Shown: positions 39,312-57,156, counted from the first letter of the stretch. The stretch is DNA of 64,000 nucleotides from Myxococcota bacterium (GCA_023150875.1 JAKLKC010000012.1:5565-69564), one strand, 5' to 3'. The notes: a model not told the origin generated them from the sequence alone. Program-made: numbers and translations.

Positions 39312-41348
39312 TCAGGCCACCCCCAGCGCCTTGAACGCCGCCTGCCGCACGTCTCCGAAGAAGATCGGGTCCACCCGCTCCAGGACGTCGGGATGGACGT
39401 CCAGGATCTGGCGCTTGTTCTCGATGGGGACGAGGGCGCGGCGGGCGCCATTGTCCATGGCGACCTGGAGGGGCTCGGTCAGGGAGCGGACCGGCTTGAT
39501 GTTGCCCTGCACGCTCATGTCGCCCAGCACCAGCAGGCTCGCCTGGGGCGGGGACCGGCGCAGGATGGAGTAGGCGGCGACGAAGAAGGCGACGCCGATC
39601 TCCGCCTCCACCCGGTTGCCCAGCAGGTCGATGACCTCGACGTGCAGGTCCGACGTGTCGAGCTCCCGGGCCACGCCGAAGGGGGTCTTCTGGGCGTGGA
39701 GGTGGGCGAAGGCGCGCTGGACCGACTCCTTCATCGCCCCGCTCACGCCCCCCGCCAGCTTCAGCTTGCCGGTCCCCGACGACTGCGACACCTCCACCCG
39801 GTACAGGCCCACCGTGCCGTCCCCGCTGACCGAGGCCGTGTAGACCGTGCCCGGCGGCAGGGGGTCGGTGGAGATCAGGTCGCGCCCCCCCTGCTCGGGA
39901 ACGCCGACGAAGCGCTCCTCGCCCGTCTCGTGGTCGACATAGCTGAAGCTCGTCTGGTAGTACTCGAAGGAGCCCATCTTCTTGAGCTGCTCCTTCACCC
40001 GGCGCCGGCCCTCCAGGGCGAAGGCCAGGACCTCCTCCAGGTCCTCCTTGGAGACCTCGCCGTGGGGGTGCAGGACCTTCACCAGCCCCGACACCGTGCG
40101 CCGCACCGCCTTGCGGTCCCGGGCGTTCAGGTGGGAGCCGAGGTCGAAGTGGTGGTCCAGCGTCTCGGTGAAGTTGAGGCGGCGCAGCTCCCGCATCGCC
40201 TCGGCCAGGTAGTCCACCACGAAGCCGTAGTGGTCGGTGAAGTGTTCGTTGCGCATCTTCGGCACCTCCCACCCCGGCAGGTAGAAGTGCAGCCGGTCGA
40301 TGAACGCCATGTCGTCCCGGATCACGTCCGGCATCGGCGCGAACAGGTGTCCCGTCTGGACCATCACGTCCACCGGCTGCTGGGTGTTGCCGAACATCGC
40401 CACGCTGGCGTAACCCGACGCCTCCTCCTGGCCCCGCTGGTAGCGCCCCGACTCGCAGTAGGTCTTGAGGGTGGTCACCACCTCCTTCGGCATCTTCTGC
40501 AGGTCGGCCACCTCGTCGAAGCCCACCACGTCCCAGATCTGCACCATCCCCTTCTGGCGACCGCTCATGTGGCCGAAGAGGTTGGCCACCGTCGTCGGAC
40601 CCGTCAGCAGCGCCGCGTAGGGCGACAGCTCCTGCACCGCGTAGCTCTTGCCCGTGCCCCGCGGGCCCAGCTCCACCAGGTTGAAGTTCTGCTCGCACAG
40701 GGGCACCAGGCGCGCCAGGAAAAGCAGCTTCAGCCGCCGCGCCATCACCGTCGGCTCGTAGCCCATGCTGCGAAGGAGCAGGTCGATCCACTCGTCGGTC
40801 GTGAACCCGGCCCGCGTCCGCCGGTAGTCGTCCAGGTCGAAGGTGGCGAGCTGGATGGGGGTCAGCTTCTCGATCCAGAACGGGTACCTGCCCCGGTTCT
40901 CGTCGTCGGGCAGGAAGCGCAGGTCCACCTGAGCCCAGATCCCGCCGGTGAGCAGGCGGTCGTAGGAGCGGACGTAGTGCTCGGGCACGCGCACGTGCTG
41001 GTGGCCGAAGTTCGCCAGCTCCGCCCAGTAGTCCGAGTCTACCAGCCGCACCTTCACTTTGTCGATGAAGGTCCAGCGCCCCTTCTCCCGGACCCGGCTC
41101 TGGGCCTTCATGGACTCGTCGGGCCGGATGTAGTTCTCGGCCAGCGTGTCCTTCACCACCTGCAGCCCCATCTGGATCGCCATCTCGTCCGACGAGGCGC
41201 AGTACTTGCCGAGCAGGTACTCCAGGACGAAGACCGGGACGTTCGCCCCCACCTTCACCTTGCGGACGAGGTCCTTGCGGACCACGCGCCCCGCGAAGAG
41301 GCGGTTCACTTTGTCGTCGAGCGCGTCGCGCGTCGGGGGCACGTTCAC
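39312..41348 (-). CDS. brxL: BREX Lon-like protease BrxL
   Basis: N-terminus 'DDKVNRLFAGRVVRKDLVRKVKVGANVPVFVLEYLLGKYCASSDE' matches BrxL family; Walker A 'LGPRGTGKS'; C-terminal Lon-like domain; GTG start. Confidence 0.9.
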   Translation of the reverse strand: MNVPPTRDALDDKVNRLFAGRVVRKDLVRKVKVGANVPVFVLEYLLGKYCASSDEMAIQMGLQVVKDTLAENYIRPDESMKAQSRVREKGRWTFIDKVKVRLVDSDYWAELANFGHQHVRVPEHYVRSYDRLLTGGIWAQVDLRFLPDDENRGRYPFWIEKLTPIQLATFDLDDYRRTRAGFTTDEWIDLLLRSMGYEPTVMARRLKLLFLARLVPLCEQNFNLVELGPRGTGKSYAVQELSPYAALLTGPTTVANLFGHMSGRQKGMVQIWDVVGFDEVADLQKMPKEVVTTLKTYCESGRYQRGQEEASGYASVAMFGNTQQPVDVMVQTGHLFAPMPDVIRDDMAFIDRLHFYLPGWEVPKMRNEHFTDHYGFVVDYLAEAMRELRRLNFTETLDHHFDLGSHLNARDRKAVRRTVSGLVKVLHPHGEVSKEDLEEVLAFALEGRRRVKEQLKKMGSFEYYQTSFSYVDHETGEERFVGVPEQGGRDLISTDPLPPGTVYTASVSGDGTVGLYRVEVSQSSGTGKLKLAGGVSGAMKESVQRAFAHLHAQKTPFGVARELDTSDLHVEVIDLLGNRVEAEIGVAFFVAAYSILRRSPPQASLLVLGDMSVQGNIKPVRSLTEPLQVAMDNGARRALVPIENKRQILDVHPDVLERVDPIFFGDVRQAAFKALGVA

Positions 41349-41352
41349 GGGG

Positions 41353-43920
41353 CTACCTCAGGAGGCTCGTGGGCAGGGCGGGGGACGAGGCGAGGACCGC
41401 CCCCGAGGCCGGATCCAGGACCACCACCTTCACCGACGCCGCGTCCTCGCCGCCCAGCGTCAGGCCGACGTGGGCCTTCGCGCCCGGCCGGACCCGCAGC
41501 ACCCCCCGCTCCCGGTCGAGCTCGCCCCCGCTGACCATGCCCGCCGCGCCCACCTGCTGCTGCTCCGACAGGACCACCACCCGCAGCTCCACCGCCTCGG
41601 GCGCGAACAGCGGCGGCGCCTTCACCTCGACCTCCACCACGAAGACCCGGTTCGTGATGCGCTCGGGCAGCCCCGCCAGGACCACCTCGATCCCGCCCGT
41701 CCCCGGCGCCGGCTCCCCCGCCGGGATCCGGAAGGAGAGGACCGGGATCACCAGCTCCTGGAGGCTCGTGCTCCCGTGGTGGAAGCTCAGGTCCCCGCCG
41801 GCCTTGAACACCCCCAGGCCCGCCGGGAACACGAGCTCCAGGTCGCCGGCGTAACCGAGCTCCCCCGCCGACACCCGCACCGTCCCGGGGGGCGTCGCGC
41901 CGCCGCGGCCGATCCAGACCCGCCGGTGGAGCTCCACCGTATCGCCGCCGGGGGCGTCGGTCTTCATGTCGTCCCCCTTCCGCAGCCCGAAGAGGTGGCC
42001 GTGGTCGGCGGTCACCACGAAGTGCTCCACCCCCGCGGCCGAGAGGCGCCGGGCCGCCCGGGCGAGGTCGCCGATCACCCCCTCCATTGCCCGCCGGGCC
42101 AGGTGGTCGTCCCCTGTCTCGCCCAGGTAGTCGATCTCCGTCGACCGCACCACCACCAGGGACCGGCCCGCGACCCGCCGCCGCAGCTCGGACGCCTTGT
42201 CCTGGAGCACCCGGCTCAGGGTCAGGTCCACGACGTCGGGCACCCGCGCCTGCAGGTACCTCGTCCGCTCCGTCACCCCCGAGAGCGGCACCCCGTCCAC
42301 CAGGGCCGCCACCTTCCCCTTGTGGGCCACCACCGACAGGTTCGCGGACGCCCCCGGCAGCAGCGCCGCCATGCCCACGGGCGTGATGGTGGGCAGGGCC
42401 GCCACGGCGGGGAGCAGGTGGAGGTCCAGGGCCCCCGGGAGCTGCCGCGCGAGCTCCACCCCCATCTCGTACCGCAGCGCGTCGACCAGGAAGTACGCCA
42501 CCGGCCCTCCCCGGGTCGCCACCACGTCCGGGTGGACGCGCGCCTGGTGCAGGACCCCCGGCACGCTCCAACCCGCCCGGGCGAGGGCCGCGGTGAAGCC
42601 CCGGGCCATGTCGTGGAGCAGCCGCTCCGCGTCCCGGAGCACGACGCTGATCGCCTTCTCGAACAGGGACTCGTCGCCGACCCGCCCCCGCCACGTCTCC
42701 AGCGCCCGCTGGGCGGCGTCCACCCGGTGCCACCCGTCCTCGGCGGCGTAGCCCGCCACCCAGGTCTCCGGACCCGCCGAGGTCGGGGGCAGGCTGCCCT
42801 TCACCGCCCCGATCCGCAGGCCGAGCACGGCGACGCGCCGCGCCACCTCCCATTGCTCCTTGCGGGGGACGCGGGTGGCCTCGTCGGTCCACTCCACCCA
42901 GAAGCTCCGCTCGCGATCCTCCACCACCTCCAACGCCTCGCCGAACCGTCCCCGCTCCAGCAGCTCGGCGCACCAGGAGAGCAGGAGCCGCTCCTCGAAC
43001 TCGAAGGTGTCGATGCGCCCCAGGTCCTCCGCCCGCACCTTCGCCCTCGCCAGGTGGAACTCCTGCTCCACCTGCCGGGCCCGGGCCGCGTAGGCCGGGG
43101 CGTGGTCCCGCCGGAAGCGCCGGGCCAGCTCCCGCACCTGCTCGCGTTGGGCCTCGGTCTCTGGCGCCGGCTGCCCGGACATCGACGCGGGCGGAGGCGC
43201 CCGGAGGTCCATCCGGAACTCGCCCAGCAGGACGTAGCGGGCGAGGCGGCCGCGGGCCTGGGCCAGGGGAAGGCCGTCGTCGAGGTGCAGGCCCACCTTC
43301 GAGGCGACGAGGCGGTACAGCTCCGCGGCGGCGCCCTTCTCGGCGATCTCCGCGTCCCGGGCCTCGTCGGCGAGCCACCGGACCAGGATCTCGGAGTCGG
43401 CGGCGTCCCCGAAGATCACCTTCAGCCGCGACGCCTCGCCGCCGTCCCGCTGCGCCAGGAAGGCCACCACGTCGTCGTAGGTGGCGCGCCCTCCCTCCAG
43501 CACCTCGTCGATGACCCCGTCGGTGTAGCGCCGGCGCAGGCAGTCCCGGGCCTGTCGGGGGAAGTCCCAGTCCAGGCGGCGCCCGGCCTTCTGCAGCTCC
43601 ATGAGCACGTCCCGGGCGGGCTCGGGCAGCTCCGCGGGCACGTAGACCAGGAGGGGCGGATCGGGGGGGCCGTCCCCCGCGAAGAAGGGCTCGACGGCGT
43701 CCCGCACCGCGAACCACGAGCCCTCGAAGGTGACGAGGCGGGCCCGACCGTCGCCCAGGTCCACCTCGAAGACGTCGGGGTGCTCGTCGCTCCAGGCACA
43801 CGCGCCGGCCAGGTCGTCGAAGAAGGGCCGGAAGGCGCCGGCGGGGTCCACGACGACGGCGACACCCCGACGCAGCGCGGCGCGCACCTGCTCGGCGAGG
43901 TGGGTGTGGAAGGGGTTCAT
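41353..43920 (-). CDS. pglZ: BREX alkaline-phosphatase-superfamily protein PglZ
   Basis: 'YFLVDALRYEMGVEL', 'VVTADHGHL' PglZ motifs; ATG at 43918-43920 overlaps stop of upstream gene (ATGA). Confidence 0.9.
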   Translation of the reverse strand: MNPFHTHLAEQVRAALRRGVAVVVDPAGAFRPFFDDLAGACAWSDEHPDVFEVDLGDGRARLVTFEGSWFAVRDAVEPFFAGDGPPDPPLLVYVPAELPEPARDVLMELQKAGRRLDWDFPRQARDCLRRRYTDGVIDEVLEGGRATYDDVVAFLAQRDGGEASRLKVIFGDAADSEILVRWLADEARDAEIAEKGAAAELYRLVASKVGLHLDDGLPLAQARGRLARYVLLGEFRMDLRAPPPASMSGQPAPETEAQREQVRELARRFRRDHAPAYAARARQVEQEFHLARAKVRAEDLGRIDTFEFEERLLLSWCAELLERGRFGEALEVVEDRERSFWVEWTDEATRVPRKEQWEVARRVAVLGLRIGAVKGSLPPTSAGPETWVAGYAAEDGWHRVDAAQRALETWRGRVGDESLFEKAISVVLRDAERLLHDMARGFTAALARAGWSVPGVLHQARVHPDVVATRGGPVAYFLVDALRYEMGVELARQLPGALDLHLLPAVAALPTITPVGMAALLPGASANLSVVAHKGKVAALVDGVPLSGVTERTRYLQARVPDVVDLTLSRVLQDKASELRRRVAGRSLVVVRSTEIDYLGETGDDHLARRAMEGVIGDLARAARRLSAAGVEHFVVTADHGHLFGLRKGDDMKTDAPGGDTVELHRRVWIGRGGATPPGTVRVSAGELGYAGDLELVFPAGLGVFKAGGDLSFHHGSTSLQELVIPVLSFRIPAGEPAPGTGGIEVVLAGLPERITNRVFVVEVEVKAPPLFAPEAVELRVVVLSEQQQVGAAGMVSGGELDRERGVLRVRPGAKAHVGLTLGGEDAASVKVVVLDPASGAVLASSPALPTSLLR

Positions 43921-44915
43921 CCGGGGTCCTCGGTCGCGGGCTGGCTCTCGTCGTCCAGGATCACCAGGCGGGTGACTTGCAAGCGCCCCGTCCGGCGTCC
44001 GCCACCCGCGCGTCGGACTCCGTGGACCTCGACCCGTCGGTCGAGGGCCTCGATGGCCGTGTCGAGCAGCTCCGGCTCGAAGCCGCACGGGACCTCCAGG
44101 GCCGCATCGCCGACGTTCCGCAGCGTGAACGACAGGTTGTCGAGGTCGATCTCCCGCAGGTCCCCCGCGTAGGTCAGGACGACCTCCGAGGCGGCGGCGT
44201 CGATGGCCGCGTCGATCCGCCGATGGGCCGCGCGTGTCAGCGAGACGGGGCGCCCGCCGGCCGAAGGTCCCGACAGCTCGACCGCGTCGACCCCTCCCCG
44301 GGGGCGCGGGGCGAGGCGCTTGACTTCGGTCAGCAGCACCCGGCGGAGCCCCGCGTCGGGGACGCGCCGCGCGAGGGCGCCCTCGTCCTCGTCCGACCCC
44401 GCCCAGGCGGCCACCGTCGCGTACTTGTCCAGCGCTTCCCTCGCCGCGCCCGCGACGCTCCCCGCGTCGGCGTCCTCGCGCTCGGGAAGGCGCAGGCCGA
44501 CGCGGACGCTGCCCGGCCGCAGGCTCAGCACCTCCAGGTCGCAGGCCCGCTGGATGGCGAGGGTCGGACGGGTCGAGAGGGACCCGGTGGCGATCCACTC
44601 GGTCCCCGACTGGATCCCCTTGCGGAGCGTGTTGAGGAAGGTGGTCAGGACGCTCGTCGGCGTGGCGGGCCAGTCGATCCCGGCGCCGCGGACTCCGAGC
44701 CAGAGGGGGGCCTCCGCCTCCTCGGCCACCGCCCGCCCGGTGTACTCGCGCAGGTCGGCCTCCATCCGCCGGATCTGGTCGAGGGGCCCCTCCGACATGA
44801 CCGCGAACCAGGCGTCGCTCAGGCGGGGACGGTCCCGCTCCAGAGCGGCCAGCGACTCGTACATCCGAGCGAGCTGCTGGAGCGTGACGCGGAGCTCGGT
44901 GTCGTTGCGGATCAT
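43917..44915 (-). CDS. uncharacterised protein (332 aa) translationally coupled between an NTase-like gene and pglZ
   Basis: ATGA overlaps at both ends (44912-44915 and 43917-43920); no known motifs recognised. Confidence 0.55.
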   Translation of the reverse strand: MIRNDTELRVTLQQLARMYESLAALERDRPRLSDAWFAVMSEGPLDQIRRMEADLREYTGRAVAEEAEAPLWLGVRGAGIDWPATPTSVLTTFLNTLRKGIQSGTEWIATGSLSTRPTLAIQRACDLEVLSLRPGSVRVGLRLPEREDADAGSVAGAAREALDKYATVAAWAGSDEDEGALARRVPDAGLRRVLLTEVKRLAPRPRGGVDAVELSGPSAGGRPVSLTRAAHRRIDAAIDAAASEVVLTYAGDLREIDLDNLSFTLRNVGDAALEVPCGFEPELLDTAIEALDRRVEVHGVRRAGGGRRTGRLQVTRLVILDDESQPATEDPG

Positions 44916-45355
44916 GGCGTCACCTTCAGGATGCCCTTCGCCCGACCGTCCCGGGTGAGCTGGAAGTATTCCATGTGGCGTGCCAGCGCGGGCGTGCCTT
45001 CCGCGCCGACGAGCACGTCGAACCCGTACCTCGTCCCCACGCGCCGGCGGGAGAGGAGGTTGTACTCGAAAGGGCGCAGCTCGGACTGGAAGTCGTGGTC
45101 CGCACGGAGGGCGAGCACGAGGTCGATGTCCCCGGGATCGGGCTCGGCGGTCACGAAGCTCCCGTCGACGGCGAGCCAGGCGATGGCGGGCGTGGTCCTC
45201 GCCTCGGCCAGGAAGGCGCGCAACCTCTCCACGAGCACATGGCGACCGGGATGCCCCAGGCAGAAGCGCCCGAAGCGCTCGCGCACCTCCGCGAAGGTGC
45301 ACTCGTGCACCCCCGGAGGCAGCAGCCCGTCGGGGGTCAGCTCCGGGATCGGCAT
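44912..45355 (-). CDS. nucleotidyltransferase-like small protein (DUF-type, 'TPDGLLPPGVH' family)
   Basis: 'LAVDGSFVTAEPDPGDIDLVL' fits GSx9-13DxD NTase motif; N-terminal 'PELTPDGLLPPGVHECTFAEV' signature. Confidence 0.55.
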   Translation of the reverse strand: MPIPELTPDGLLPPGVHECTFAEVRERFGRFCLGHPGRHVLVERLRAFLAEARTTPAIAWLAVDGSFVTAEPDPGDIDLVLALRADHDFQSELRPFEYNLLSRRRVGTRYGFDVLVGAEGTPALARHMEYFQLTRDGRAKGILKVTP

Positions 45356-45482
45356 GGCGCCTCGGGGAGAAGCGGGGAGAGCTGGCGGGCGGAACGGCTC
45401 ATGCACGGTCCCCGACCGGCCTGCGGTCCGCCACATCGGGCGCACCGATCCGGGGGATGCTGCCGGAGGGCGGGAGCGCGGC

Positions 45483-45542
45483 GACGCCCCGGCGCCGCGC
45501 GGCGCGCACCAGCTCGGCGAGGTGGGTGTGGAACGGGCTCAT
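45483..45542 (-). pseudogene. remnant of a second pglZ 5' end (20 codons, MSPFHTHLAELVRAARRRG...)
   Basis: 45483-45542 ~ 43861-43920 at nt level incl. ATGA junction; similarity stops abruptly. Confidence 0.5.
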
Positions 45543-46228
45543 CCGGGGCCCTCGGCGCGGAGGCGGCCCTGGCGGCGGAGCTGCCTCGCCACCAGCGGGC
45601 ACTCGCAGGCCAGCCAGGAAAGGGGCCACGGTTCCGGCGGATCGTCCGGGTCGGTCCGCAGGCCGTGGTACCGGTCGTGGTATTCCGCACGTGCGTCACA
45701 GAAGACGGGGTCGTTGAGGCCCAGCCTCGAGATCGTCGCCTCGACCTTCGCCCGGACCTCGGCTTCCAGGTCGTCCGCCGGGGCGATCTCGAAGCTCGCC
45801 ACGTCCAGCGTGAACCAGTGGTCCTGGACCTCGAAAGGGTCCAGCACGTCCTCGTGGTCGCCCTTGTTGGTGTTCACCTGGGCGGCCGCGAGGCGGAAGT
45901 TCGACCACTCGTAGGCGAGGCGCCGGTCCCTCGACTTGGGGACGAAGTGGTCGACCGTGGCGGCTCCCGTCGCCTCGTGGATGCGCATGCCCAGGTAGCC
46001 GCACACGTTCCCGTAGCGCCGCCGGAGCTCGGGCAGCGCGCGGGTCCAGAACGTGGGGAGGTTCTCCACGGGGATGGCGTCGATGGTCGTCGCCACGACG
46101 CTCCGCTTGCGGCCTCGCCGTGGGGGACCCGAGGTATCACCGACGAGTTCACGGAGGGCTCGCTCGCCCGGGATCCTCACGAGCTCGTCGAAGTCGGCCG
46201 GTTCCTCGGCGGGATCGACGTGGATCAC
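45539..46228 (-). CDS. HNH endonuclease (PtuB-like)
   Basis: 'CGYLG...VDHFVPKS...WSNFRLAAAQVNTNK' HNH motif; GTGA overlap with upstream ATPase. Confidence 0.7.
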   Translation of the reverse strand: MIHVDPAEEPADFDELVRIPGERALRELVGDTSGPPRRGRKRSVVATTIDAIPVENLPTFWTRALPELRRRYGNVCGYLGMRIHEATGAATVDHFVPKSRDRRLAYEWSNFRLAAAQVNTNKGDHEDVLDPFEVQDHWFTLDVASFEIAPADDLEAEVRAKVEATISRLGLNDPVFCDARAEYHDRYHGLRTDPDDPPEPWPLSWLACECPLVARQLRRQGRLRAEGPG

Positions 46229-47511
46229 GCGGGCTCCGGCGGAAGGTGCTGCGACATGAAGTGCCGCCAGCGGACGAAGAAGGGGTCCATCGCCGGGAGG
46301 AGGCGGCCGAGATCGGCATCGACGTTCCGGATCCGGTCCGGGTCGGGTGAGGGCTCACGAATGAGCCGGCGGGCGGCTTCGATGGCCCTCTCCGCGTCTA
46401 CCGACGTCGCCTCGCCGAGATCGAATACGTCGGAGCGGAGCCACCGGCTCGCGTCGCCCCTCAGGTGCCACTCGTCCTTTGCGATCTGGACCATCCCGTC
46501 CACCAGGTCGAGCTTCCACAGGGCGTCCCGGGAGGGGTCGAACACGGGCTCCATCGAGGCGAGGATCAGGGGGGAATGGGTCGCCACCAGGAACTGGACG
46601 TCGGGAGCGGCGTCGTCGTGCCACCCGCGCACGGCCTCGTGGATGCCACGAAGCACCGTCCGCTGCCACCTGGGGTGGAGGTGGGTCTCGGGCTCGTCGA
46701 TGAGCACGATCAACTGGCGCGACATGGGCCTGCCCATGCTGGCGCTCTCCCGCTCGTGGGCGGACAGGGACCAGGCCAGCAGGTAGGCCAGCTTGCACAT
46801 CCGCTGCACCCCCGCCGGGGCGTATGTGATGGGGACGTCCTGGCCGTAGGGCATGGATACGGTGGGGATCGCCCGGTCGTCGTCGGGGTACGGGTACCGT
46901 GGCTCTCCCGGCCGCAAGGGTTCTCCTTCGGGGCCCAGGGCGGCCAGCAGCCTGCGGAGCAGCTCGAACCTCGGGTCCTCGCTGCGCTGCCAGAGGATCC
47001 AGTCCAGGATCAGCCCGGAGCAGATCGTCTGCTCCCGCTCCTGGCCGCCCTCGGTGATGGTCCGACGCAGGCCGTGGAAGACCTGGCGTGGGCTGAACTG
47101 GTATGCCGGTGGCGCCTCGATGTTACCGCCGTCGGGGCGCTGATAGAGGCGGTAGTTCCGAGCCGGGTCCCAGGCCGAGAACGAGCCGTCCACGCGAGCG
47201 TACAGGACGAGGCCCGGGTTCGGGGGGCGGCCCGGGGCCCGCCGCCAGGTCTGGGCTCCCGGGAGCCACTTGGAGACCGCTTGGTGGGGTCGCCGTTCCC
47301 CGTCGAAGGCGAAGGCGATCTCGGCGTCCTGCGCGTTCGGGACCGCGGGCGACTCGTGCCAGGTGCGGGTCAGGGCCCACCACCCCACATCCAGCAGGAA
47401 CGACTTCCCGAGCCCGTTGTCCCCGGTGATCAGGTTGAAGCGGCGCGCGATGGGGTCCATCACCAGCGACGCGCCGGGCCCGACCCGGGTGAGCTTCAGC
47501 TTCCTCAGCAT
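46225..47511 (-). CDS. AAA/ABC-type ATPase (PtuA/OLD-like)
   Basis: Walker A 'TGDNGLGKS', Walker B 'LIVLIDEPETHLHP', 'ATHSP'; ATG overlaps pglX stop (TGATG at 47509-47513). Confidence 0.7.
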   Translation of the reverse strand: MLRKLKLTRVGPGASLVMDPIARRFNLITGDNGLGKSFLLDVGWWALTRTWHESPAVPNAQDAEIAFAFDGERRPHQAVSKWLPGAQTWRRAPGRPPNPGLVLYARVDGSFSAWDPARNYRLYQRPDGGNIEAPPAYQFSPRQVFHGLRRTITEGGQEREQTICSGLILDWILWQRSEDPRFELLRRLLAALGPEGEPLRPGEPRYPYPDDDRAIPTVSMPYGQDVPITYAPAGVQRMCKLAYLLAWSLSAHERESASMGRPMSRQLIVLIDEPETHLHPRWQRTVLRGIHEAVRGWHDDAAPDVQFLVATHSPLILASMEPVFDPSRDALWKLDLVDGMVQIAKDEWHLRGDASRWLRSDVFDLGEATSVDAERAIEAARRLIREPSPDPDRIRNVDADLGRLLPAMDPFFVRWRHFMSQHLPPEPA

Positions 47512-50500
47512 CAGGAATCCTCGGCGGGCGGCGCCTTGGGCAGCGCCAGGTCGAGCTGGTGACTGCGCTCCTGACCGCGCCGGGGGCGCTCGGGAGCGGC
47601 TCGCGCCGGACGCCCCGGGGACCGGCGGGCCGGCGCGGGCGGCGGCGTGTGGGTGAGCTTCGCCAGGGCGTCCTTCACGGCGGGGGAGGTGCGCTCCCTC
47701 ACGAGGGACTCTACGACGTCGCCCTCGACCTCGCGGGGAGACCACCGACCGTCCTCGTCCGGGCACCAGAAGACGTCCTCCAGGCCGTGGGCGATGGCGA
47801 GGCTGCGGTCCAGGGCGCACTTCGGGACCACGCGCTCGGGCCACAGGCGCATGGCCAGGTGGGACCAGTCGTACTCGGCCTCGCAAAGGCGGGCGAAGGC
47901 GCCCTCGCACTCCTTCTGCCAGCTCCGGGTGTGGGCGAAGAGGCGGTGCAGCGGCGCGGCGTTGAGGATCACGCCGTCGTCGAGGTCCGGGTCCCACAGG
48001 GGGGCCACCCGGGCGACCTCGTCCCGGAAGGCGCGAAGCTCGTCCACGAAGGCCTCCTGCTCGGCCAGGGCGCGCCGCTGGGAGGGCGTGGGCGTGCCGC
48101 CGACCTCGGCGCGGAGGTGGGCGAGGCGCCCCTCCTCGAAGCGCAGCTTGGGCGCGACGTGGTCGTGGAGGACGCGGTGCAGGGTGTCCCGGGCGAAGCG
48201 GTGGATGTAGACCCACACGCTGTAGCTGCCCGAGGGGGTGCCCAGGCGCCAGTAGATGGGGGCCTTGCGGCGGCTCCGCGAGTAGCGCTGGACGTGCTCG
48301 GCGAAGAAGGCCCGCCTCAGCCAGGGGCGCAGGTCATCGGCGCCGGGGTCGAGGAGGGCGGTCGCCTCCCTGAGGCGCTCGTCGCCGTCGTCGCCGAAGA
48401 CCACGTCGAAGACCCGCCGGATGCACCCGAGCAGGTCGCGCTCGTGGCCGGGGTCGTCGACGAGGATCCCGTCGGTGGGGAAGGCGATGGGGTAGCCGGC
48501 GGGCGGTGCGTCCGCGGGCAGGCCGTCCTCGCCGGTCAGCATGCCCGGGGAGCAGGGGGGGAGGGGATCGAAGGGGTCGGGCTCGGGCGGTAGCGGGCGC
48601 TCGCCGGTGGCGAGGCGGATGTCGAAGCGGCCGTATGCCGTGCCCACGAGCGCGCTGACTACGGGCATCACCACCTCAGCAGCACCGAACTCGGGGGACC
48701 ACGCCGTGCTGAGTTTGCGCACATCGTCGGACGCGGTCACCCCGAACAGTTGTGCGATTTCGTCATCAATGACAGCTAACGCTTCATTGAATTTGTGGAG
48801 CTCCACCTTCCTCCGGCAATGCTCATCCGCAACAAGGCCGCGACCGACTCCAGTTCCGTAGATATGCGCAGGCATTCCACCAAACGTAGGATCCAATTCA
48901 TCCAAGCCGCGAAGAGCCCTAGCCGCGCTAATCGCTATCATACTGGCATGTTCAACGCGCTTCTTGACCTCCTCTTGTGGCCACCGCCAATTCAGCGACT
49001 TCACCAGCCCGGTCGGGAATGCGGAAGCTGTGGACCGGCTCATTACGGCCTTTCGCGTAACGGCGGCGTTCAACCATCCGACGAGATATGCATTGCTAAC
49101 GGACTCTGTGATGGAAATAACGGCGGGGCCGACAATCGACATGATGACACCCCGGGGTAGGTTCCGAACTGCAAATCCGAGCGTCGACCGGTACGAGTAC
49201 GTTGCCCCGCCCCTGTACCACCACGAAGATCCCGTTCGGCACTGCGCCGTCTGTCCATTGATGGCCATGTTCACAGCATCTAGCTCCGCTCCGTCCTGCC
49301 TTCGGTTCAGGACCAGATGGACGTCGCCGTAGAATGGCTGGAATTCGCCCCCTTTGGCATACCGTGCCCAGCACTTGGGTGATAGATCTCTGGCATTGAC
49401 TTCAGTCCAGATGCGGAGGAACCGCTCGTCGTCATGAGTCAGCGGCCCTTGACGAGCTGTTCCTGCTGCGGGTTCGAACGACTCGCTTTGTTCCCCGATC
49501 TGCGTGGATGCCAGTGCTCCACCTGTCAATACTTGATGTGCTACGCTCATGACTATTTGCCGCCGCGCCCGCCACGCTGGATCACGAGGACGACCGGCAG
49601 AAGCAGCGAGGAGGGCTTCCGCGCTTTGCCCCGGTTCGCCCGAGACCACGAATACCGAGTCTTCTGCACTTCCGGGGGCGCCGGCCAGTACAAAGTAACA
49701 GGCCCGGACTACAGCATCGTCCATGAGCCCCATTCCAGCATCGACCAGTATTGCGAAGCGATCGTTGAACTTGTGCCTCCTCCAGCGACCAAGTCTCTTG
49801 GTTGTCAGCACGCTATTGGGAGCCACAACACCGATCGGTCCATTCGTCAGTTCGGCTGCACGGTCGACAAGAGCCGCAGATGCCTCGACGTACGAGAGGG
49901 AGCGATTTCGCCTTAGAAGCAGGAATGGAGAATCGGGGAGCCTCCCAAACGGCGGATTCATCAACACCACGTCGTACCGCCCCCGGCACACGTCGATGAA
50001 CGCGAACCCCCGCGCCGCGTCCTCGGCGAACAGCCTCCTCCGGTACGCGTTCCCGGTCGTCGCCCCCTCGGCGTACTCCCTCAGCGCCTCGTAGACCTTG
50101 CCCTCGACCTCCTCCCACCGCTCCCGGTCCAGCCGCGCGTACATCGGCCCCCGGCTGAACCGCTTCTCCAGCTCCTGGCGCACCGTGTCCTCGATGCGCA
50201 GCAGGGTCCCGGCCTCGCCCGCGAGCCTCATCTCTTCGAACACCCGCCGCACCAGGGCGGCGACGTCGGGGTCCAGGCCCCAGCAGAACTCGTCCAGCAG
50301 GTCCGCCTCCCCCGGCATGGGCTCGGCGATCACCACGTTCGTCCGGGTCACGAGCGGTCGCTTCGCGCGGTCCAGGCCCAGGTCCTTCCACGCCCTCTGG
50401 GCCCGCATCCACAGCGCCAGTGCCGCGATCTGGGCGGCCCGGGGGTCGATGTCCACCCCGTACAGGTTGTGCCTCAGGACCAGCCCCGGCAGCTCCCGCC

Positions 50501-51617
50501 GCAGCGCCTCCCGCGTCGCGTAGTCCTCGCGCAGGCTCCTCCCGGTGGCCTCCGACGCCGGGGAGCCCTCGTCCTCCCACGCCTCCTCGTAGATCACCAG
50601 GAGCAGGTCGAAGGCGTAGAGCAGGAAGTGACCCGACCCGCAGGCCGGGTCCAGGATCTTCAGGTCCCGCGGGTCCTTCTTCGCCCGGAAGGGCAGGTGG
50701 ACCGGCCGCTGCTCGGGCGGGACCGTCTCGTCGGGCTCGGGCGCGGCCTCGCCCTCCGCCAGGAACACGGTGCCCGGCCGGCGCACGAGGTAGCGGCAGA
50801 GCTCCGCGAGCCGCGTCCCGCCCCGGCGCATCTCCAGCCAGGTCTGGCCGAGGGTGTTGTCGGTCAGGAACTCCACGACGTAGCGCGGGGTGAAGAACTG
50901 GTTGCGGACCGCGAGCTCCCGGCTGTCGCGGGGGGCCTGGGACTCGGCCCGCATCCGCCGCCGCTCGTCCTCGCCGTTGAAGTACTGGTAGACCCAGCCG
51001 ATGGTCTCGTCCTCGCCCCACACCTGGGCCAGCTCGGGGTCGTTCAGGACCCCCAGCAGATCCTCCAGCGCGTTGCGCCGGGGCCAGAGCAGGCTCGCGG
51101 GGTCGCGGCGGTCGAAGAGGACCCGCACCTCGCGGCCCACCTCGTCGAAGAGGCACTCCAGGTAGAGGCGGTAGGCCTCGTGGGGCCGCACCTTCAGCCC
51201 CTCGGCCAGGCCCTGGAACTCGCGGAAGCCCGACGATGCCAGGGCCCCCCTCACGCTCTCCCTCACGATCCCCCGCGCCTCCAGCATCTTCAGGGCGACG
51301 AAGCGGTTGAGGGTGGTGAAGGCGCACTCCCGGGTGAGCGCCGCCACCGCCTCGGGCGCGGTCCGGCCCTGGGCGCGGTGGTGGGCGACGGCGTCCACCA
51401 GCCTCCGCCGCACCCGGCGGGCCGCGGGGTCCTCATCGAGATGGCGCCCCGCCTCCTCCGCCACCGTGCCGTCCGGGCGGATGTCGAAGGTGCCCTCGAG
51501 CTGGGCGGCGATCTCCCCCTCGAGCAGGCGGCGGGCGGCCTGGGTGGCGCGCTGGATGCGGTTGCGGGTGTCCTTGTCCATGCCTCGGGGCCGTGGGCGC
51601 GGGGCGGCGGGGATCAT
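47511..51617 (-). CDS. pglX: BREX N6-adenine methyltransferase PglX
   Basis: 1368 aa; 'VVLMNPPFG' motif IV at ~49948-49962, 'DPACGSGHFL' motif I; position between brxC and pglZ. Confidence 0.85.
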   Translation of the reverse strand: MIPAAPRPRPRGMDKDTRNRIQRATQAARRLLEGEIAAQLEGTFDIRPDGTVAEEAGRHLDEDPAARRVRRRLVDAVAHHRAQGRTAPEAVAALTRECAFTTLNRFVALKMLEARGIVRESVRGALASSGFREFQGLAEGLKVRPHEAYRLYLECLFDEVGREVRVLFDRRDPASLLWPRRNALEDLLGVLNDPELAQVWGEDETIGWVYQYFNGEDERRRMRAESQAPRDSRELAVRNQFFTPRYVVEFLTDNTLGQTWLEMRRGGTRLAELCRYLVRRPGTVFLAEGEAAPEPDETVPPEQRPVHLPFRAKKDPRDLKILDPACGSGHFLLYAFDLLLVIYEEAWEDEGSPASEATGRSLREDYATREALRRELPGLVLRHNLYGVDIDPRAAQIAALALWMRAQRAWKDLGLDRAKRPLVTRTNVVIAEPMPGEADLLDEFCWGLDPDVAALVRRVFEEMRLAGEAGTLLRIEDTVRQELEKRFSRGPMYARLDRERWEEVEGKVYEALREYAEGATTGNAYRRRLFAEDAARGFAFIDVCRGRYDVVLMNPPFGRLPDSPFLLLRRNRSLSYVEASAALVDRAAELTNGPIGVVAPNSVLTTKRLGRWRRHKFNDRFAILVDAGMGLMDDAVVRACYFVLAGAPGSAEDSVFVVSGEPGQSAEALLAASAGRPRDPAWRARRQIVMSVAHQVLTGGALASTQIGEQSESFEPAAGTARQGPLTHDDERFLRIWTEVNARDLSPKCWARYAKGGEFQPFYGDVHLVLNRRQDGAELDAVNMAINGQTAQCRTGSSWWYRGGATYSYRSTLGFAVRNLPRGVIMSIVGPAVISITESVSNAYLVGWLNAAVTRKAVMSRSTASAFPTGLVKSLNWRWPQEEVKKRVEHASMIAISAARALRGLDELDPTFGGMPAHIYGTGVGRGLVADEHCRRKVELHKFNEALAVIDDEIAQLFGVTASDDVRKLSTAWSPEFGAAEVVMPVVSALVGTAYGRFDIRLATGERPLPPEPDPFDPLPPCSPGMLTGEDGLPADAPPAGYPIAFPTDGILVDDPGHERDLLGCIRRVFDVVFGDDGDERLREATALLDPGADDLRPWLRRAFFAEHVQRYSRSRRKAPIYWRLGTPSGSYSVWVYIHRFARDTLHRVLHDHVAPKLRFEEGRLAHLRAEVGGTPTPSQRRALAEQEAFVDELRAFRDEVARVAPLWDPDLDDGVILNAAPLHRLFAHTRSWQKECEGAFARLCEAEYDWSHLAMRLWPERVVPKCALDRSLAIAHGLEDVFWCPDEDGRWSPREVEGDVVESLVRERTSPAVKDALAKLTHTPPPAPARRSPGRPARAAPERPRRGQERSHQLDLALPKAPPAEDS

Positions 51618-51663: not shown

Positions 51664-54600
51664 CTACTGCACCCAAACCTTCTTGCCCTCCCCGATCAGC
51701 CGCTCGCACTCGTCCCGCAGGGCCTGGATCGCCGCGTCGAGCTGCTCGGGGGTCTCGACGCCCCCCGGGAAGAACGACGACACCCGCACCCGCACCACGC
51801 GGTTGCCGTCGATCATGCGGAGCATCTCCTCCGTCGCCGCCTGGAGCCGCGCCGGGCACGCCTCGGTCTCGGCGCGCACCTGGGGGATGGGGGTGGGGGG
51901 CGGCAGGGCGGTGGTGGCGGGGCCCGCGAGGGGGGCCTCCACCCGGGCCTGCTGGGCAGCGTCGAGCTGGGACCACTCCGGCGCCCCGCGCAGGCGCTCC
52001 ACGGCGGCGGCGTAGGCGGCGCGCCGGGCCTCGACGGCGGCGTCGAAGCGGGCCCGCCAGGCGGCGCCGACCTCCCGGGCGTGCTCGTCGATCCGCGGCA
52101 GCTCCCGGAAGAAGGTCTCGCGCCGCAGCAGGTCGTCCAGCTCCTCGGCCCGCGCCGCCAGGCCTTCGGGGAGGTCCGGCTCCTCCTTCAGGAACGGCCA
52201 CTGGCGGCGCACCGCGTCCCGGGCACGGGCGAGGTCCAGGAGGCGCGGCTCGGTCAGGGCGTCGTCCAGCTCGGCGGCGCGCTTGATGCCCGCCTTGATC
52301 TCCCCGCAGCTCGCGTTGAACGTGGTGATGGCGTTGTCGTCGCCGCCCGTGCGGATCACGCGGACCTGCTCCAGGGCGCGGGCCAGCACCTCGGCCCCCG
52401 GCAGGTCGTCGCGGACCAGGCGGTTGTGGACGTCCTGAAGGGCCTGCTCGTGGCGATGGACCTCGTCCTTGATGGCGCGGGCGACGACTCCCGGCTCCAG
52501 CTCGGCGATCTCCTTGCCGAACACGTCGCGGAAGTGCCCGTCCGCCTTGACCAGCTCCCCGTAGTCGACGCTGACCTTCGGCCGGAACGTCGCCTGCCGG
52601 AAGAGGTTGTTGTTGGTGAACGTCGTCCGCGCGTCGAGGGAGAGGGCGTTGTCGATCACCTGCCCCCGGGAGACCGCCTCCACCTTCCCGGCGCGCAGAA
52701 GGCTCGCCACCAGCAGGCGCACCACGTCGAAGTCCCAGCCGAAGGGCTCCTTGCCCAGCTCGTCGGCCAGCGCCCGGCCGCTCACCAGCTCGCCATAGGC
52801 CGCCTTGTGGGCGATCCGGTTCATCACCTCGGAGAGGGGACCGCCCTCGGTGCGGAACGCGGGCTTGCCCCTCGTCTCCTGGACGAGCTGGAGCTGGGAG
52901 AAGACCGGCGGGAGGCCCCGGAGGTTCTCGGTGGTCAGCAGGGCCTCCAGGTCCTTCGCGGACACCTTCGCGGCGCCGTCCGAGAAGCGGTCGAAGACCT
53001 CGGGGAGCACCCTCGCGAGCACGCCCGCGCAGGCGCGGCCCACGTCGGCGGCGCCGGCCTCGGGGTTGCGCTCGTTGCCGCGGAAGTAGACGGTGCCGGA
53101 GAGCAGGGCTTCCCGCAGGCGCCGCCTCAAGTCGTCCTGGTGGCGCTGGCGGCGGCGCTTCTCCTCGGCCACGAGGGCGGTCTCGTCCCGGGTGGTGGCG
53201 TTGCGCTCGCGTCGGGCCAGGATCTCCTGGCTGCGGAAGACCTCCTCGGTCACGCGGTCCACGGCGTCGTCCAGGCGGGCGATCCAGAAGACGGCGGTGC
53301 GCTCCTCGCGGCTGCGCTGCCGCCACTCCTCGCGCAGGCGGCCCCACTCGGCCTCGTCCGGCGCCAGGGAGACGTGGACCGGAACGTCGCCGGGGGTGAC
53401 GAGGCGGTTGTTCAGGAAGAGCCCGGCCCGGAAGGGCTTGACGTCACGCAGGAGGTGGGACGGCTGGGGCGTCCACAGCCCGTCCACCACCTCGGCGTGG
53501 ATCCGGGCGGCGTCGGCGGGCCGGAGGGAGAGCTTGCCCCGCTGGCCCTCCCAGTCGTCCTCGGCGGGCGTGGGGATCCGGTAGCCGTCCTCGCCCAGGC
53601 GGATGCGGCCCGCGGCGACGAGGGCGTCCAGGGCCGCCTTGACCTCGGGGAGCTGGGAGTCGGCGGTGACGCTCGGGTGGAGGGTGGCGGCGACGTTCTC
53701 GGCGGTGCGGGGGATCCGCTGCTCGTACTGGAGCAGGCAAACCGCCTTGGCGACGGCCTGGGCGCGGGGGTGCGGCACCTCGCGGCCGATGTCGTCGATC
53801 TTCCGGCGCACGTCGCTCGAGACGTTGCCCGAGACGAGGTCGTACACGCGATCGAGGGTGACGAGGGTCCCCTCGGGCTTCGAGGCGAGGTCCACCTCGG
53901 GGTGGATGAGGAGCTGCTGGGCGAGCTTGATGATGGTGCGGGCGGCGCCGCCGACGTGTTTGCTGGCGCCGCCCTGGGTGCGCAGGCCCGAGACGACGTT
54001 GATCACGAGGTCGATCTGGTAGGGGAGGAGGGGGTAGAGGTCGATGAAGCCCTGGTCGGTCAACTCGGGCAGGGCGACGTTGGGGGCGTGGACGCGGGTG
54101 TGGTCCACGAGGCGGCCCCGGTGCTCCCGGTGGAGGGCGCGCAGGCGGGCCTGGGCGTCGGCGTGCTTCTCGAGGACGCGGCGGCTGGTGACCTCGGAGA
54201 TGTCCGAGGGCTCCAGGTGCACCTGGAGGGGGAAGCGGTCCTTCACCTTCGGCAGCTCGATGCGCGTCTGGTCGAGGCCGCCGACCAGCTCCGAGAGGGC
54301 CTCCTGGGAGGTGACCATGACCCAGATCCGCCCGCCGCCCCGCTGGCCCAGGCGCTCGACCACGGCGCGGAGGTCCTCGAGCTTACCGCCGTCCTTGGCG
54401 ACGAACTGGCCGACCTCGTCGATGACGAAGAGCAGGTTGCGCTTTTCGGGCCGGCGCCTCGACAGCAGCTCCAGGCAGCGGTCCGCCAGCAGGGCCGGGG
54501 TGACGTCGCCCCGGCCCTTCGCCCCCTTCACCCAGGAGTCGGGGGCGTTGTAGGTGCGGGGCTCCAGGGCGTGCATGACCGCCGAGGCCCGGCCGATGGC

Positions 54601-55218
54601 GAGGGCGGGCAGGCCCTTGTCGTGGTCCCAGGCCCGGCGGTCGTGGAGCTCGGCGTACTTCGCGACGAAGGCGCCGAGGCGGCCCTCGGCCTCCAGCGTG
54701 ATCTCCAGCTCGGCCAGGTCCAGCTCCCGGGCGTAACCGAGCCGCTGGAGGAAGAGGCGGTACATGATCTCGGTGATCGACTGGTTTCCGGCGCGGATCC
54801 CCCGGTCGGTCGAGACGTCGAAGATCACCGCCTCGGTGGGGACCATCTCGTTCACCTGGCGGAGCAGGACCTCGGCCTTGTTGTCCTTGGGGACGCTGAG
54901 CCGCCGGGCGAGGAGGTCGCCCGCGCGCGCGCCGCCGCCCAGGTCGCGGTCCTCGATGGCGAGGCCTAGCATCTTGGCGAAGCTGGACTTGCCCGAGCCG
55001 AAGAAGCCCGAGATCCACACCGCGGTGCCGTCGTGGGGCTTGCGGAACGCCTCCAGGTAGGCCTCGAGGATGGCGATCTGCTGCCTCCGGATGGAGTCGG
55101 TGACGACGTACTCCGACAGCTCGTGGCGGATCCGCGCCAGGTCGTCGTCGTCGACCTTCACGACCTCCTCGATCCGGCGGTCGACGTCGCGGGCAAAGAG
55201 CTCGGCGATGCGTTCCAT
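51664..55218 (-). CDS. brxC: BREX ATPase BrxC
   Basis: 1184 aa; P-loop 'GFFGSGKSSFAK', 'LLFVIDEVGQF' Walker B; N-terminus 'MERIAELFARDVDRRIEEVVKV' typical. Confidence 0.9.
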   Translation of the reverse strand: MERIAELFARDVDRRIEEVVKVDDDDLARIRHELSEYVVTDSIRRQQIAILEAYLEAFRKPHDGTAVWISGFFGSGKSSFAKMLGLAIEDRDLGGGARAGDLLARRLSVPKDNKAEVLLRQVNEMVPTEAVIFDVSTDRGIRAGNQSITEIMYRLFLQRLGYARELDLAELEITLEAEGRLGAFVAKYAELHDRRAWDHDKGLPALAIGRASAVMHALEPRTYNAPDSWVKGAKGRGDVTPALLADRCLELLSRRRPEKRNLLFVIDEVGQFVAKDGGKLEDLRAVVERLGQRGGGRIWVMVTSQEALSELVGGLDQTRIELPKVKDRFPLQVHLEPSDISEVTSRRVLEKHADAQARLRALHREHRGRLVDHTRVHAPNVALPELTDQGFIDLYPLLPYQIDLVINVVSGLRTQGGASKHVGGAARTIIKLAQQLLIHPEVDLASKPEGTLVTLDRVYDLVSGNVSSDVRRKIDDIGREVPHPRAQAVAKAVCLLQYEQRIPRTAENVAATLHPSVTADSQLPEVKAALDALVAAGRIRLGEDGYRIPTPAEDDWEGQRGKLSLRPADAARIHAEVVDGLWTPQPSHLLRDVKPFRAGLFLNNRLVTPGDVPVHVSLAPDEAEWGRLREEWRQRSREERTAVFWIARLDDAVDRVTEEVFRSQEILARRERNATTRDETALVAEEKRRRQRHQDDLRRRLREALLSGTVYFRGNERNPEAGAADVGRACAGVLARVLPEVFDRFSDGAAKVSAKDLEALLTTENLRGLPPVFSQLQLVQETRGKPAFRTEGGPLSEVMNRIAHKAAYGELVSGRALADELGKEPFGWDFDVVRLLVASLLRAGKVEAVSRGQVIDNALSLDARTTFTNNNLFRQATFRPKVSVDYGELVKADGHFRDVFGKEIAELEPGVVARAIKDEVHRHEQALQDVHNRLVRDDLPGAEVLARALEQVRVIRTGGDDNAITTFNASCGEIKAGIKRAAELDDALTEPRLLDLARARDAVRRQWPFLKEEPDLPEGLAARAEELDDLLRRETFFRELPRIDEHAREVGAAWRARFDAAVEARRAAYAAAVERLRGAPEWSQLDAAQQARVEAPLAGPATTALPPPTPIPQVRAETEACPARLQAATEEMLRMIDGNRVVRVRVSSFFPGGVETPEQLDAAIQALRDECERLIGEGKKVWVQ

Positions 55219-55229
55219 GGCGGGTCTCC

Positions 55230-55817
55230 TCAGAAGATGCGGGGCCGGTAGTTGTGCTCGGCGTCGATCGCGCCCATGAAGCGCAGGCCGGCGGGGCCGT
55301 CGGTCTCGCCGGGGTAGAAGAGCACCGTGGGAACGGCCACCTGGCCCACGAGCTGCTCCAGAAGGGCCGAGGTGCGGTAGAGGGGGTACAGGGCGCCGGC
55401 GCGGACGAGGAGGACGACGTCCCGGAGGGGATCAGCGTCCTTCGGGACCCGGGCGGCGACGAGGCGGTCGAGGCGCTGGTACTCGGCCAGGACCGAGAAG
55501 GCGGTCTCGATCGCCAGGGGGAGGCCGGCCTCGCGCTCCGCCGCGGCGAGGGCGCCGCCCCCCAGCCCCTCGGCAGCGAGGGCGGCGGCGAGGCACTCGG
55601 CGAGGGAGATCCGGGTGACGCGCTTGCCCTTCTGGCCGAGGCGGGTGGCGAGGAGGGTGACCTCCTTGCGGAGCTCGAGCTCGTCCTCGGGCGGGTAGAC
55701 GAAGACCACGAAGGGCATGTCGTGGTAGGCGCTGATCCCCGGGCGGGGGTCCTCCTTGATCAGCGCGGGCTCGAGCCGCCCGGTCAGGCGGGCCTTCCAA
55801 GAGGGAGTGGGGGTCAA
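55230..55817 (-). CDS. brxB: BREX protein BrxB (DUF1788)
   Basis: 'VVFVYPPEDELELRKEV' BrxB N-terminal signature; inferred TTG start with RBS aggag, overlapping brxA stop (TTGA). Confidence 0.7.
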   Translation of the reverse strand: MTPTPSWKARLTGRLEPALIKEDPRPGISAYHDMPFVVFVYPPEDELELRKEVTLLATRLGQKGKRVTRISLAECLAAALAAEGLGGGALAAAEREAGLPLAIETAFSVLAEYQRLDRLVAARVPKDADPLRDVVLLVRAGALYPLYRTSALLEQLVGQVAVPTVLFYPGETDGPAGLRFMGAIDAEHNYRPRIF

Positions 55818-56602: not shown

Positions 56603-57156
56603 CACCCCTCCAGGCGGGCGTAGGGGATGGCGGGGGCCTCCCTCTCGCCCCGGAAGAAGCCGGCGGCGAGCAGGCCGAGGGTCTCGTCGTCGAGGGCGCA
56701 CACCCCGGGGAGGGGGACGGCGCGCCCGTCGACGGAGCGCTTGAGGTGGCGGGCCCGGGCCAGCTCGGCCTCGCCGAGGACCTCCAGGGAGCGCAGGCCG
56801 TGGAGCACGTCGCCCTGCAGCCCCGTCAGCGCGGCGAAGAAGGGCGCCCAGCGGTCGGGCTGGTCCATCCAGTCCTGGAGGTGGTCCTCGAAGACCTCCT
56901 CGACCTCGGGGGGGAGGCTGAACAGGGTGGCGCAGGCCGGGGGGTTCCAGAGCTCCCGCGTGCGGGCGCGGGCCACGGCGAGCGCGACCCGGGCCTGGGC
57001 GAACGGGGCGGTGCGAGGGAAGCTCCGCTCGTACAGGGTGCGTCCCAGCGGCCCGAGGACGCCCCGGGTGTTCCACCAGCCCAGCCGGTCCATCTCGCCG
57101 AGGCGCGCCACCACGAGGCGGAGCCGGAAGAGGCGGTCGAAGTCGATCGCGTGCAT
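56602..57156 (-). CDS. hypothetical protein (185 aa) translationally coupled upstream of brxA
   Basis: ATG at 57154-57156; stop overlaps brxA ATG; no recognised motifs. Confidence 0.5.
   Translation of the reverse strand: MHAIDFDRLFRLRLVVARLGEMDRLGWWNTRGVLGPLGRTLYERSFPRTAPFAQARVALAVARARTRELWNPPACATLFSLPPEVEEVFEDHLQDWMDQPDRWAPFFAALTGLQGDVLHGLRSLEVLGEAELARARHLKRSVDGRAVPLPGVCALDDETLGLLAAGFFRGEREAPAIPYARLEG

Follow-up and report, generated by a model that had tools for sequence, protein, structure and literature searches.

A coupled pair of genes, encoding a 147-aa DUF6932 minimal nucleotidyltransferase (NTase) and a 332-aa partner here called p332, is found between the pglX and pglZ genes in a complete type 1 bacteriophage exclusion (BREX) operon in a Myxococcota bacterium (GCA_023150875.1 JAKLKC010000012.1:5565-69564; this whole stretch of 64,000 nt is the window, and coordinates are counted on it). 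The pair forms a conserved and coupled unit of NTase and partner which moves from one defence locus to another, and it is neither a core nor a BREX-specific gene set. Our preferred reading, held with moderate confidence, is that the pair works as an abortive-infection module resembling a toxin-antitoxin system and is a divergent form of the candidate system PDC-M63, carried as an autonomous and usually promoter-less cassette and captured here as BREX cargo. That confidence attaches mostly to its being mobile defence-type cargo; in the abortive-infection function the NTase would be the effector. The features that matter to the argument are listed here, and translation and inspection of the sequence place all the genes of the BREX region and its cargo on the minus strand.

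44912-45355, minus strand: DUF6932 minimal nucleotidyltransferase, 147 aa, first gene of the pair
43917-44915, minus strand: p332, the 332-aa partner, second gene of the pair
41353-43920, minus strand: pglZ, downstream boundary of the cargo slot (PADLOC PglZ, 1.4e-238)
43828-43933, minus strand: resident repeat copy, with the functional p332-stop/pglZ-start junction and the first 31 pglZ codons
45450-45555, minus strand: diverged duplicate of the junction, made up of the final 14 nt of the preceding gene, then ATGA and about 31 codons of pglZ
45399-45542, minus strand: 47-aa open reading frame (ORF) beginning with the copy of the pglZ N-terminus, coupled to PtuB (gene call on sibling contigs)
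45356-45449, minus strand: spacer from the remnant to the NTase gene, with a GAGG Shine-Dalgarno sequence 4 nt before the ATG
45539-46228, minus strand: PtuB, Septu HNH nuclease, 229 aa, neighbouring cargo (PADLOC PtuB, 3.7e-60, full length)
46225-47511, minus strand: PtuA, Septu ABC-type ATPase, 428 aa, neighbouring cargo (PADLOC PtuA, 1.9e-141; Pfam AAA_21 and AAA_15)
47511-51617, minus strand: pglX, upstream boundary of the cargo slot (PADLOC PglX, score 1192)

The NTase gene overlaps p332 by ATGA (...ACG CCA TGA / ATG ATC), and p332 overlaps pglZ in the same way (...CCC GGA TGA / ATG AAC). A preliminary description of this DNA had reported the pair and both overlaps, and reading the sequence directly confirmed them. 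Both ORFs are real genes, since their GC content at third codon positions (GC3) is 0.91-0.93, both have homologues, and AlphaFold2 (AF2) models the two proteins with high confidence (predicted local distance difference test, pLDDT, 92.7 and 91.2). Homologues of the NTase number 228. For p332 there are 50 full-length homologues at 44-62% identity, and a profile search returned 1622 cluster representatives (50% identity clusters) at E<=1e-3, with 214 at E<=1e-30.

The 147-aa protein (MPIPELTPDGLLPPGVHEC...VDGSFVTAEPDPGDIDLV...) had been called an NTase fold from its sequence, and this call is borne out. It matches Pfam DUF6932 (PF22014) over profile positions 1-142 of 142 with 90 bits against a cut-off of 27, and PADLOC PDC-M63A (PDLC04744) over its full length (7.7e-18). 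It has the features of a pol-beta-like NTase, namely the hG[GS]...DxD motif, a third carboxylate and the alpha/beta NTase fold. Among 46 homologues the G65-S66...D76-x-D78 motif is invariant and D113 nearly so. Conservation in the same alignment extends to R38, P95, N99 and K140 and to an N-terminal motif in which P4, G10, L12, P13 and G15 are invariant and H17 is nearly so. The motif P95-x-x-Y-N99 includes a nearly invariant tyrosine, Y98. A DUF6932 profile search against PDB sequences gave no match, and the family is unmentioned in the literature searched.

The partner (MIRNDTELRVTLQQ...) has a predicted three-part fold in the AF2 model, with an N-terminal helical hairpin (5-68), an alpha/beta middle domain (71-240) and a C-terminal oligonucleotide/oligosaccharide-binding (OB) fold at about 244-319. 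Its best fold matches are OB-folds that bind single-stranded DNA (ssDNA), and its top conserved motif, GDLREIDLD (251-259), is inside the OB domain. Overall p332 is soluble and acidic, with a pI of 5.1; median pI values are 4.9 for the OB domain and 8.3 for the segment 69-150. It has no hydrophobic segment (maximum KD19 0.78). No match was found for p332 among Pfam, NCBIfam, PHROG and PADLOC families, nor by tblastn in the phage and plasmid collections; its profile found nothing in PDB sequences (best E 0.33). It has no HEPN match in Pfam or PADLOC, and the family alignment has neither a conserved R-x4-6-H nor an invariant His or Tyr. The earlier view of p332 as a protein of no placeable family thus stands, and with 1622 clusters the protein is conserved. 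Sub-threshold matches to DUF5818 in the OB region, seen when all 47 p332 family members were scanned, were treated as noise. An apparent Rosetta-stone fusion (P0082, 575 aa) was rejected, because the first 246 residues come from a spurious extension of the start in high-GC sequence and carry no DUF6932 signal. A BFVD search with the p332 model returned three multi-domain viral proteins (a DUF6575 protein, Leptospira phage LE1 Q6NE06 and a Myoviridae protein) over 280-338 columns at E 1e-8 to 3e-6; with TM-scores of only 0.3-0.4 these are a lead only. DUF6575 is a domain in one experimentally selected E. coli defence system (PMC9519451).

The pair behaves as a unit. Wherever a fetched locus (numbered L001 onward) contains an intact p332 and reaches far enough upstream, a DUF6932 gene directly precedes p332 on the same strand and either overlaps it (usually by 4 nt) or ends within about 20 nt of it; truncated copies are the sole exception. 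The coupling described for the window therefore holds across loci. A scan of species-representative genomes gave 6 loci only. The contexts of the pair are as follows.

BREX, brxC-pair-pglX: L005, L017, L022/23, L060
BREX, pair followed by two HEC-01A genes and brxC: L024, where two PtuA-like ATPases adjoin the pair
BREX, pglX-PtuAB-pair-pglZ: this window
DISARM, pair-DrmA-DrmB-DrmC: L020
Type III restriction-modification (R-M) with a DrmD-like helicase, Mod-pair-Res: L009, and with an extra gene before Res in L002-4/L008
Methyltransferase island, NurA-methyltransferase-pair: L044
Type I R-M, pair near the HsdR gene: L010
GmrSD island with ParE toxin-antitoxin pairs: L046
Region like an integrative and conjugative element (ICE), beside a Bub-like ubiquitin system: L001
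Island with an ApeA-HEPN protein: L006
P2-like prophage in Lysobacter: L013

About 9 of the 17 distinct contexts are methylation-based systems, and inside operons the intergenic gaps of the pair are 3-60 nt. The copies embedded in BREX, which come from at least 5 lineages, are 39-52% identical to each other, scattered in the dendrogram and as divergent as random members of the family. Because these copies are divergent and not clustered together, the pair must have become associated with BREX at least four times independently. Its position within BREX varies, it is absent from the three closest BREX relatives (L048, L055 and L056), and it has many non-BREX contexts, so it is not BREX-specific. 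It is also none of the six BREX core genes, each of which is present separately. The preliminary description had singled out p332 as a candidate BREX accessory or defence component; the association with defence holds, but a tie to BREX in particular does not, given its occurrence with DISARM, type III and type I R-M, GmrSD, the ICE and the prophage. A generic NTase/HEPN toxin-antitoxin pair, which had been named beforehand as the reading to guard against, does not fit either, as the partner is not a HEPN protein and the association with defence is strong.

Decayed copies of the pair are common (L011, L012, L029-30, L032-33, L035-43). L025/26 have an intact p332 beside an NTase that is truncated at its 5' end and has lost the catalytic half, and L029 has an intact NTase with p332 reduced to its N-terminal ~205 residues. 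In L011 and L035-L038 (for example L037, 5654-9571), PtuA-PtuB are followed by a decayed p332 (~109-220 deleted, no DUF6932) and then by PtuB fragments, and there is no BREX on the contig; PtuAB and p332 are thus neighbours in a second type of arrangement.

The place of the pair in the window is a cargo slot. The three closest PglZ relatives (73, 71 and 68% identity) have different genes in each pglX-pglZ interval.

L048: 142-aa gene, ParA-like ATPase, 495-aa gene and 804-aa gene, abutting or overlapping the pglZ start by 1 nt
L055: a single 795-aa gene, with a 4-nt overlap with the pglZ start
L056: 221-aa gene, 49-aa gene and AAA_21 ATPase, with a 4-nt overlap with the pglZ start

The closest relatives thus differ in their cargo, and in each of them the last cargo gene abuts or overlaps the start of pglZ. 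This marks the stretch from pglX to pglZ as a genuine site of cargo exchange, one of whose recombination boundaries falls within the conserved pglZ 5' end. The idea of a cassette-exchange hotspot at this junction had been put forward from the window, and the three other cargoes uphold it. The cargo in these relatives is mostly unannotated and provides further uncharacterised candidates.

In the window, the boundary is marked by a remnant. The repeat search reported a single direct repeat, 43828-43933 versus 45450-45555 (106 nt, 80% identical ungapped, spacing 1622). Alignment gives a core of ~78 nt, from -14 to +64 relative to the pglZ ATG, that is about 91% identical; the 14 nt before the ATG cover the ribosome-binding site and the last codons (...PG*) of whichever gene stands upstream. 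A 35-nt degenerate junction pattern has only these two sites in 64 kb and was found in 0/100 shuffles. The upstream copy encodes MSPFHTHLAELVRAARRRGV, compared with MNPFHTHLAEQVRAALRRGV in pglZ (17/20 identical), and the likeness reaches about 31 codons. The copy of the pglZ 5' end behind the HNH gene, as first described, is thus real. It is nearest to the resident pglZ allele, with THLAE common to both and QHL[VDN]E in relatives. The PtuB stop is coupled to it by ATGA (...CCC GGA TGA / ATG AGC), and the start of PtuA overlaps the stop of pglX. PtuA and PtuB are adjacent with a 4-nt overlap and constitute a Septu system by PADLOC. The remnant is an open 47-aa ORF that is translationally coupled to PtuB.

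The direction of the exchange is less clear. The pair had been described as the incomer, arriving through the pglZ 5' end as a homology arm. The scar alone fits an arrival of PtuA-PtuB equally well, and the arrangement in relatives mildly favours the original proposal. In the alternative history, a donor pglX'-PtuA-PtuB-pglZ' would have recombined upstream of an existing pair-ATGA-pglZ. Both histories predict the same final structure, and about 9% of core positions distinguish the remnant from the resident pglZ, as would be the case for a donor allele. PtuAB and the pair also have the same slightly lowered GC3 (0.90-0.93, compared with 0.97-0.98 in the BREX core), and GC3 profiles do not discriminate which of the two arrived later. 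However, PtuAB lies between pglX and pglZ in L005, and in L060 PtuA follows pglX (behind a MNT-HEPN pair) to the end of the locus, while in both the pair is elsewhere, between brxC and pglX. In addition, p332 is joined to pglZ in no other fetched locus. We regard the arrival of PtuA-PtuB as possible but somewhat on the improbable side, and because PtuAB or PtuA follows pglX in L005 and L060 and the pair lies elsewhere, an insertion of the pair into an older PtuB-ATGA-pglZ junction is mildly favoured. No empty site was found among five contigs with identical PglZ, all of which have the same arrangement or are cut; no second pglZ remnant was found in the other loci with PtuAB and p332. In 13 loci, the flanks of the pair share nothing but homologous host genes, and no conserved boundary motifs (attC-like or other repeats) were found there. 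The pglX-pglZ slot of L060 (13632-14601) holds a classical MNT-HEPN pair and then PtuA.

PDC-M63 is a computational candidate system in PADLOC, and the pair resembles it in having an A-type first gene, a 4-nt overlap and a partner of about 310-330 aa. This kind of system occurs on prophages, plasmids and defence islands (PHROGs 9194 and 6603). In Erwinia phage vB_EhrS_59, a canonical PDC-M63 pair (A 2.3e-41, B 1.6e-43) comes immediately after cI and reads in the same direction, with N on its far side; in lambda, this slot belongs to rexA-rexB. The p332 profile is collinear with the 310-aa B protein of this phage (65-140 versus 71-146, E 2.5e-6 in hmmsearch). Ten of the 47 p332 family members also match PDC-M32A (best 1.8e-7). 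We conclude from these comparisons that p332 is a distant, separately diversified branch of the PDC-M63B kind. The differences are that the B component in the window is unmatched, so that PADLOC would not call the system, and that the p332 family forms a separate large branch that is absent from the phage and plasmid collections searched. The pair had been called previously undescribed, which is true only in part: the NTase is DUF6932/PDC-M63A and the partner is remotely related to PDC-M63B, but the partner has no named family.

The preferred reading of the pair as an abortive-infection module would work as follows. The pair was captured in the variable pglX-pglZ slot of a complete type 1 BREX operon beside Septu PtuAB, presumably through a joint made inside the pglZ 5' end that left the remnant, and translational coupling to the host operon would lead to co-expression with BREX. 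The DUF6932 NTase would be the effector and, by analogy with MenT and AbiEii, may nucleotidylate a cellular target such as tRNA 3' ends. The N-terminal helical hairpin of p332 would keep the NTase inactive, and the middle and OB-fold domains could act as a sensor that frees the enzyme upon infection. Because the 147-aa NTase has no substrate-binding domain of its own, the partner may be an inhibitor and specificity factor, or a substrate. In MenT and AbiEii (DUF1814), an NTase effector is restrained by a cognate protein in an abortive-infection or toxin-antitoxin module. These belong to other NTase families, however; neither protein of the pair matches them in Pfam or PADLOC, and their gene order is reversed, with the antitoxin first.

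The polarity with the NTase as effector is suggested by two variants and by the decay pattern of L025/26 and L029. On the Nostoc sp. NIES-3756 plasmid pNOS3756_1 (L059, 3998-5901), the DUF6932 gene overlaps by 4 nt the gene for a 488-aa protein. This partner starts with a hairpin resembling that of p332 (MIKNERQYRVTQTQ...), followed by an HTH_3 (XRE) domain and Peptidase_M78, and matches PADLOC RmrA models. RosmerTA systems use the protease-HTH protein as antitoxin against a variety of toxins (PMC10440598). In the Nostoc pair, DUF6932 would take the place of the toxin in an arrangement of RosmerTA type. Because its partner is of the RmrA type, the antitoxin in RosmerTA, the NTase and the hairpin may be the constant element and the C-terminal modules swappable. 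The likeness to RosmerTA (RmrT toxin and RmrA HTH/M78-peptidase antitoxin) is limited to the Nostoc variant, as p332 has neither the XRE HTH nor the M78 peptidase. In the second variant, on the Klebsiella pneumoniae plasmid pKC25-20651A (L057, 3992-5170), DUF6932 is fused to a ~260-aa C-terminal domain with an HSFGT motif. This domain is possibly an alpha/beta-hydrolase, and the gene adjoins an ATP-binding protein and UvrD-helicase pair that is Gabija-like.

Several observations weigh against this reading. The p332 of the window has no PDC-M63B match at E<=0.1 in PADLOC, only 10 of the 47 family members match that model, weakly (best 8.8e-4), and the hhalign probability between p332 and the phage B protein is only 58%. 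The likeness of the Nostoc hairpin to p332 is not significant (E 0.23). The nearest solved structures to DUF6932 in structure comparison are MNT antitoxins, which would reverse the polarity. The acidity of p332 and its OB domain weakens the idea of a nucleic-acid-binding sensor, and binding of nucleic acid by the OB domain is insecure because the domain is acidic. In the sole published test, deletion of PDC-M63AB in E. coli NILS69 had no phenotype against 10 phages (PMC12409345). Finally, the pair is embedded in methylation-based operons time and again and accompanies PtuAB in three BREX loci, which could point to a functional coupling instead of autonomy.

This last point leads to the first alternative, that the pair is not autonomous but serves methylation-based immunity (BREX, DISARM, type III and type I R-M) as a functional accessory or a backup. 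Transcribed together with the host operon, it would fire when the primary system is blocked, for example by anti-restriction proteins, in a PARIS-like manner, and it may act with PtuAB. The share of methylation-based contexts is consistent with this, as is the usual position of the pair between cistrons with short gaps and no promoter of its own; in the window, a promoter and terminator scan of 43600-47800 gave 0 sites. The window, L005 and L060 each combine BREX and the pair with PtuAB of one subfamily, although the BREX proteins are only 24-57% identical. PtuAB also stands beside a p332 remnant outside BREX in L037, and the pair of L024 abuts its two PtuA-like ATPases in front of brxC. In the main-text passages of a survey of BREX loci, auxiliary 'backup' effectors within these loci are described and include HEPN-MNT fusions (PMC12839542). 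Like PARIS, BrxU/GmrSD and these backup effectors, the pair consists of foreign genes nested between core genes; in the main-text passages of that survey, none of the embedded modules named combines DUF6932 with an OB-fold partner (PMC12839542). On the other hand, the pair occupies three different slots within BREX, and it is found away from any methylation system in the ICE (L001), the GmrSD island (L046), L006, the P2-like prophage (L013) and, in its canonical kind, the phage cI slot. Homologous recombination between conserved flanking defence genes would also spread any cassette without a functional link. We consider this alternative unlikely on balance, with some chance of being right. A more specific form is rather doubtful: the NTase and OB-fold partner, possibly with PtuAB, would be a conserved second layer wired into BREX, DISARM and type III R-M, in which the acidic partner senses phage interference and the released NTase modifies nucleic acid or protein.

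The main mechanistic rival is a reversed polarity as in type VII HEPN-MNT systems, with DUF6932 as an antitoxin that silences a p332 toxin by nucleotidylation. The pair is like HEPN-MNT in having a minimal pol-beta-fold NTase (about 100-150 aa) as the first gene of a two-gene operon, and the MNT antitoxins are its nearest solved structures. However, p332 has a hairpin, an alpha/beta domain and an OB fold instead of HEPN, without the Rx4-6H motif or an invariant His or Tyr, and DUF6932 has the extra invariant N-terminal motif. The intact p332 alongside a catalytically dead, truncated NTase in L025/26 and the antitoxin-type partner in Nostoc also speak against a p332 toxin, and we think this polarity quite improbable. 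A Hailong-like guard is weaker still: the NTase would make a short untemplated oligonucleotide (perhaps protein-primed) that holds off the p332 OB-fold until phage nucleases remove it and trigger the system, and although the Hailong precedent, the ssDNA-binding OB-folds among the best matches of the partner to a minimal NTase and the nearly invariant Y98 fit this, Hailong pairs its NTase with a transmembrane ion-channel effector, HalA, whereas p332 is soluble, acidic and free of hydrophobic segments. We regard this guard as very unlikely.

The host operon is otherwise a type 1 BREX locus, with all six core proteins (BrxA, BrxB, BrxC, PglX, PglZ and BrxL) identified by PADLOC models. Its remaining genes are these.

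56602-57156, minus strand: BrxE-like gene, a 184-aa ORF upstream of brxA (weak PADLOC BrxE match, 7.6e-7)
55814-56602, minus strand: brxA (PADLOC models)
55230-55823, minus strand: brxB (PADLOC models)
51664-55218, minus strand: brxC (PADLOC models)
39312-41348, minus strand: brxL (PADLOC models)

The BrxE-like ORF is present even though the locus is otherwise type 1, with BrxL. The best NCBIfam match of PglZ is the BREX-6 PglZ model, below the cut-off of that model. Codons ~540-960 of pglX (~48740-50000, minus strand) have a GC3 of 0.48-0.70, compared with 0.95-1.00 in the flanks. This block looks like a horizontally swapped segment from a donor of lower GC, and is presumably the target-recognition region.

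Embedded defence cargo is already an established theme in BREX, and the function of the pair is one that we infer. The pair is a widespread module of unassigned mechanism among defence candidates, with more than 1600 clusters and a partner that has no Pfam family, and it offers a concrete, testable architecture of a minimal NTase with a hairpin/OB-fold partner. The visible recombination scar and the three alternative cargoes of the sister loci document the pglX-pglZ junction as a cassette-exchange slot. They also raise the question of why the pair recurrently nests in methylation-based operons, often with Septu-type PtuAB. If the pair were a second layer of these systems, neither its defence chemistry nor the logic of its coupling would have a described counterpart in BREX so far.

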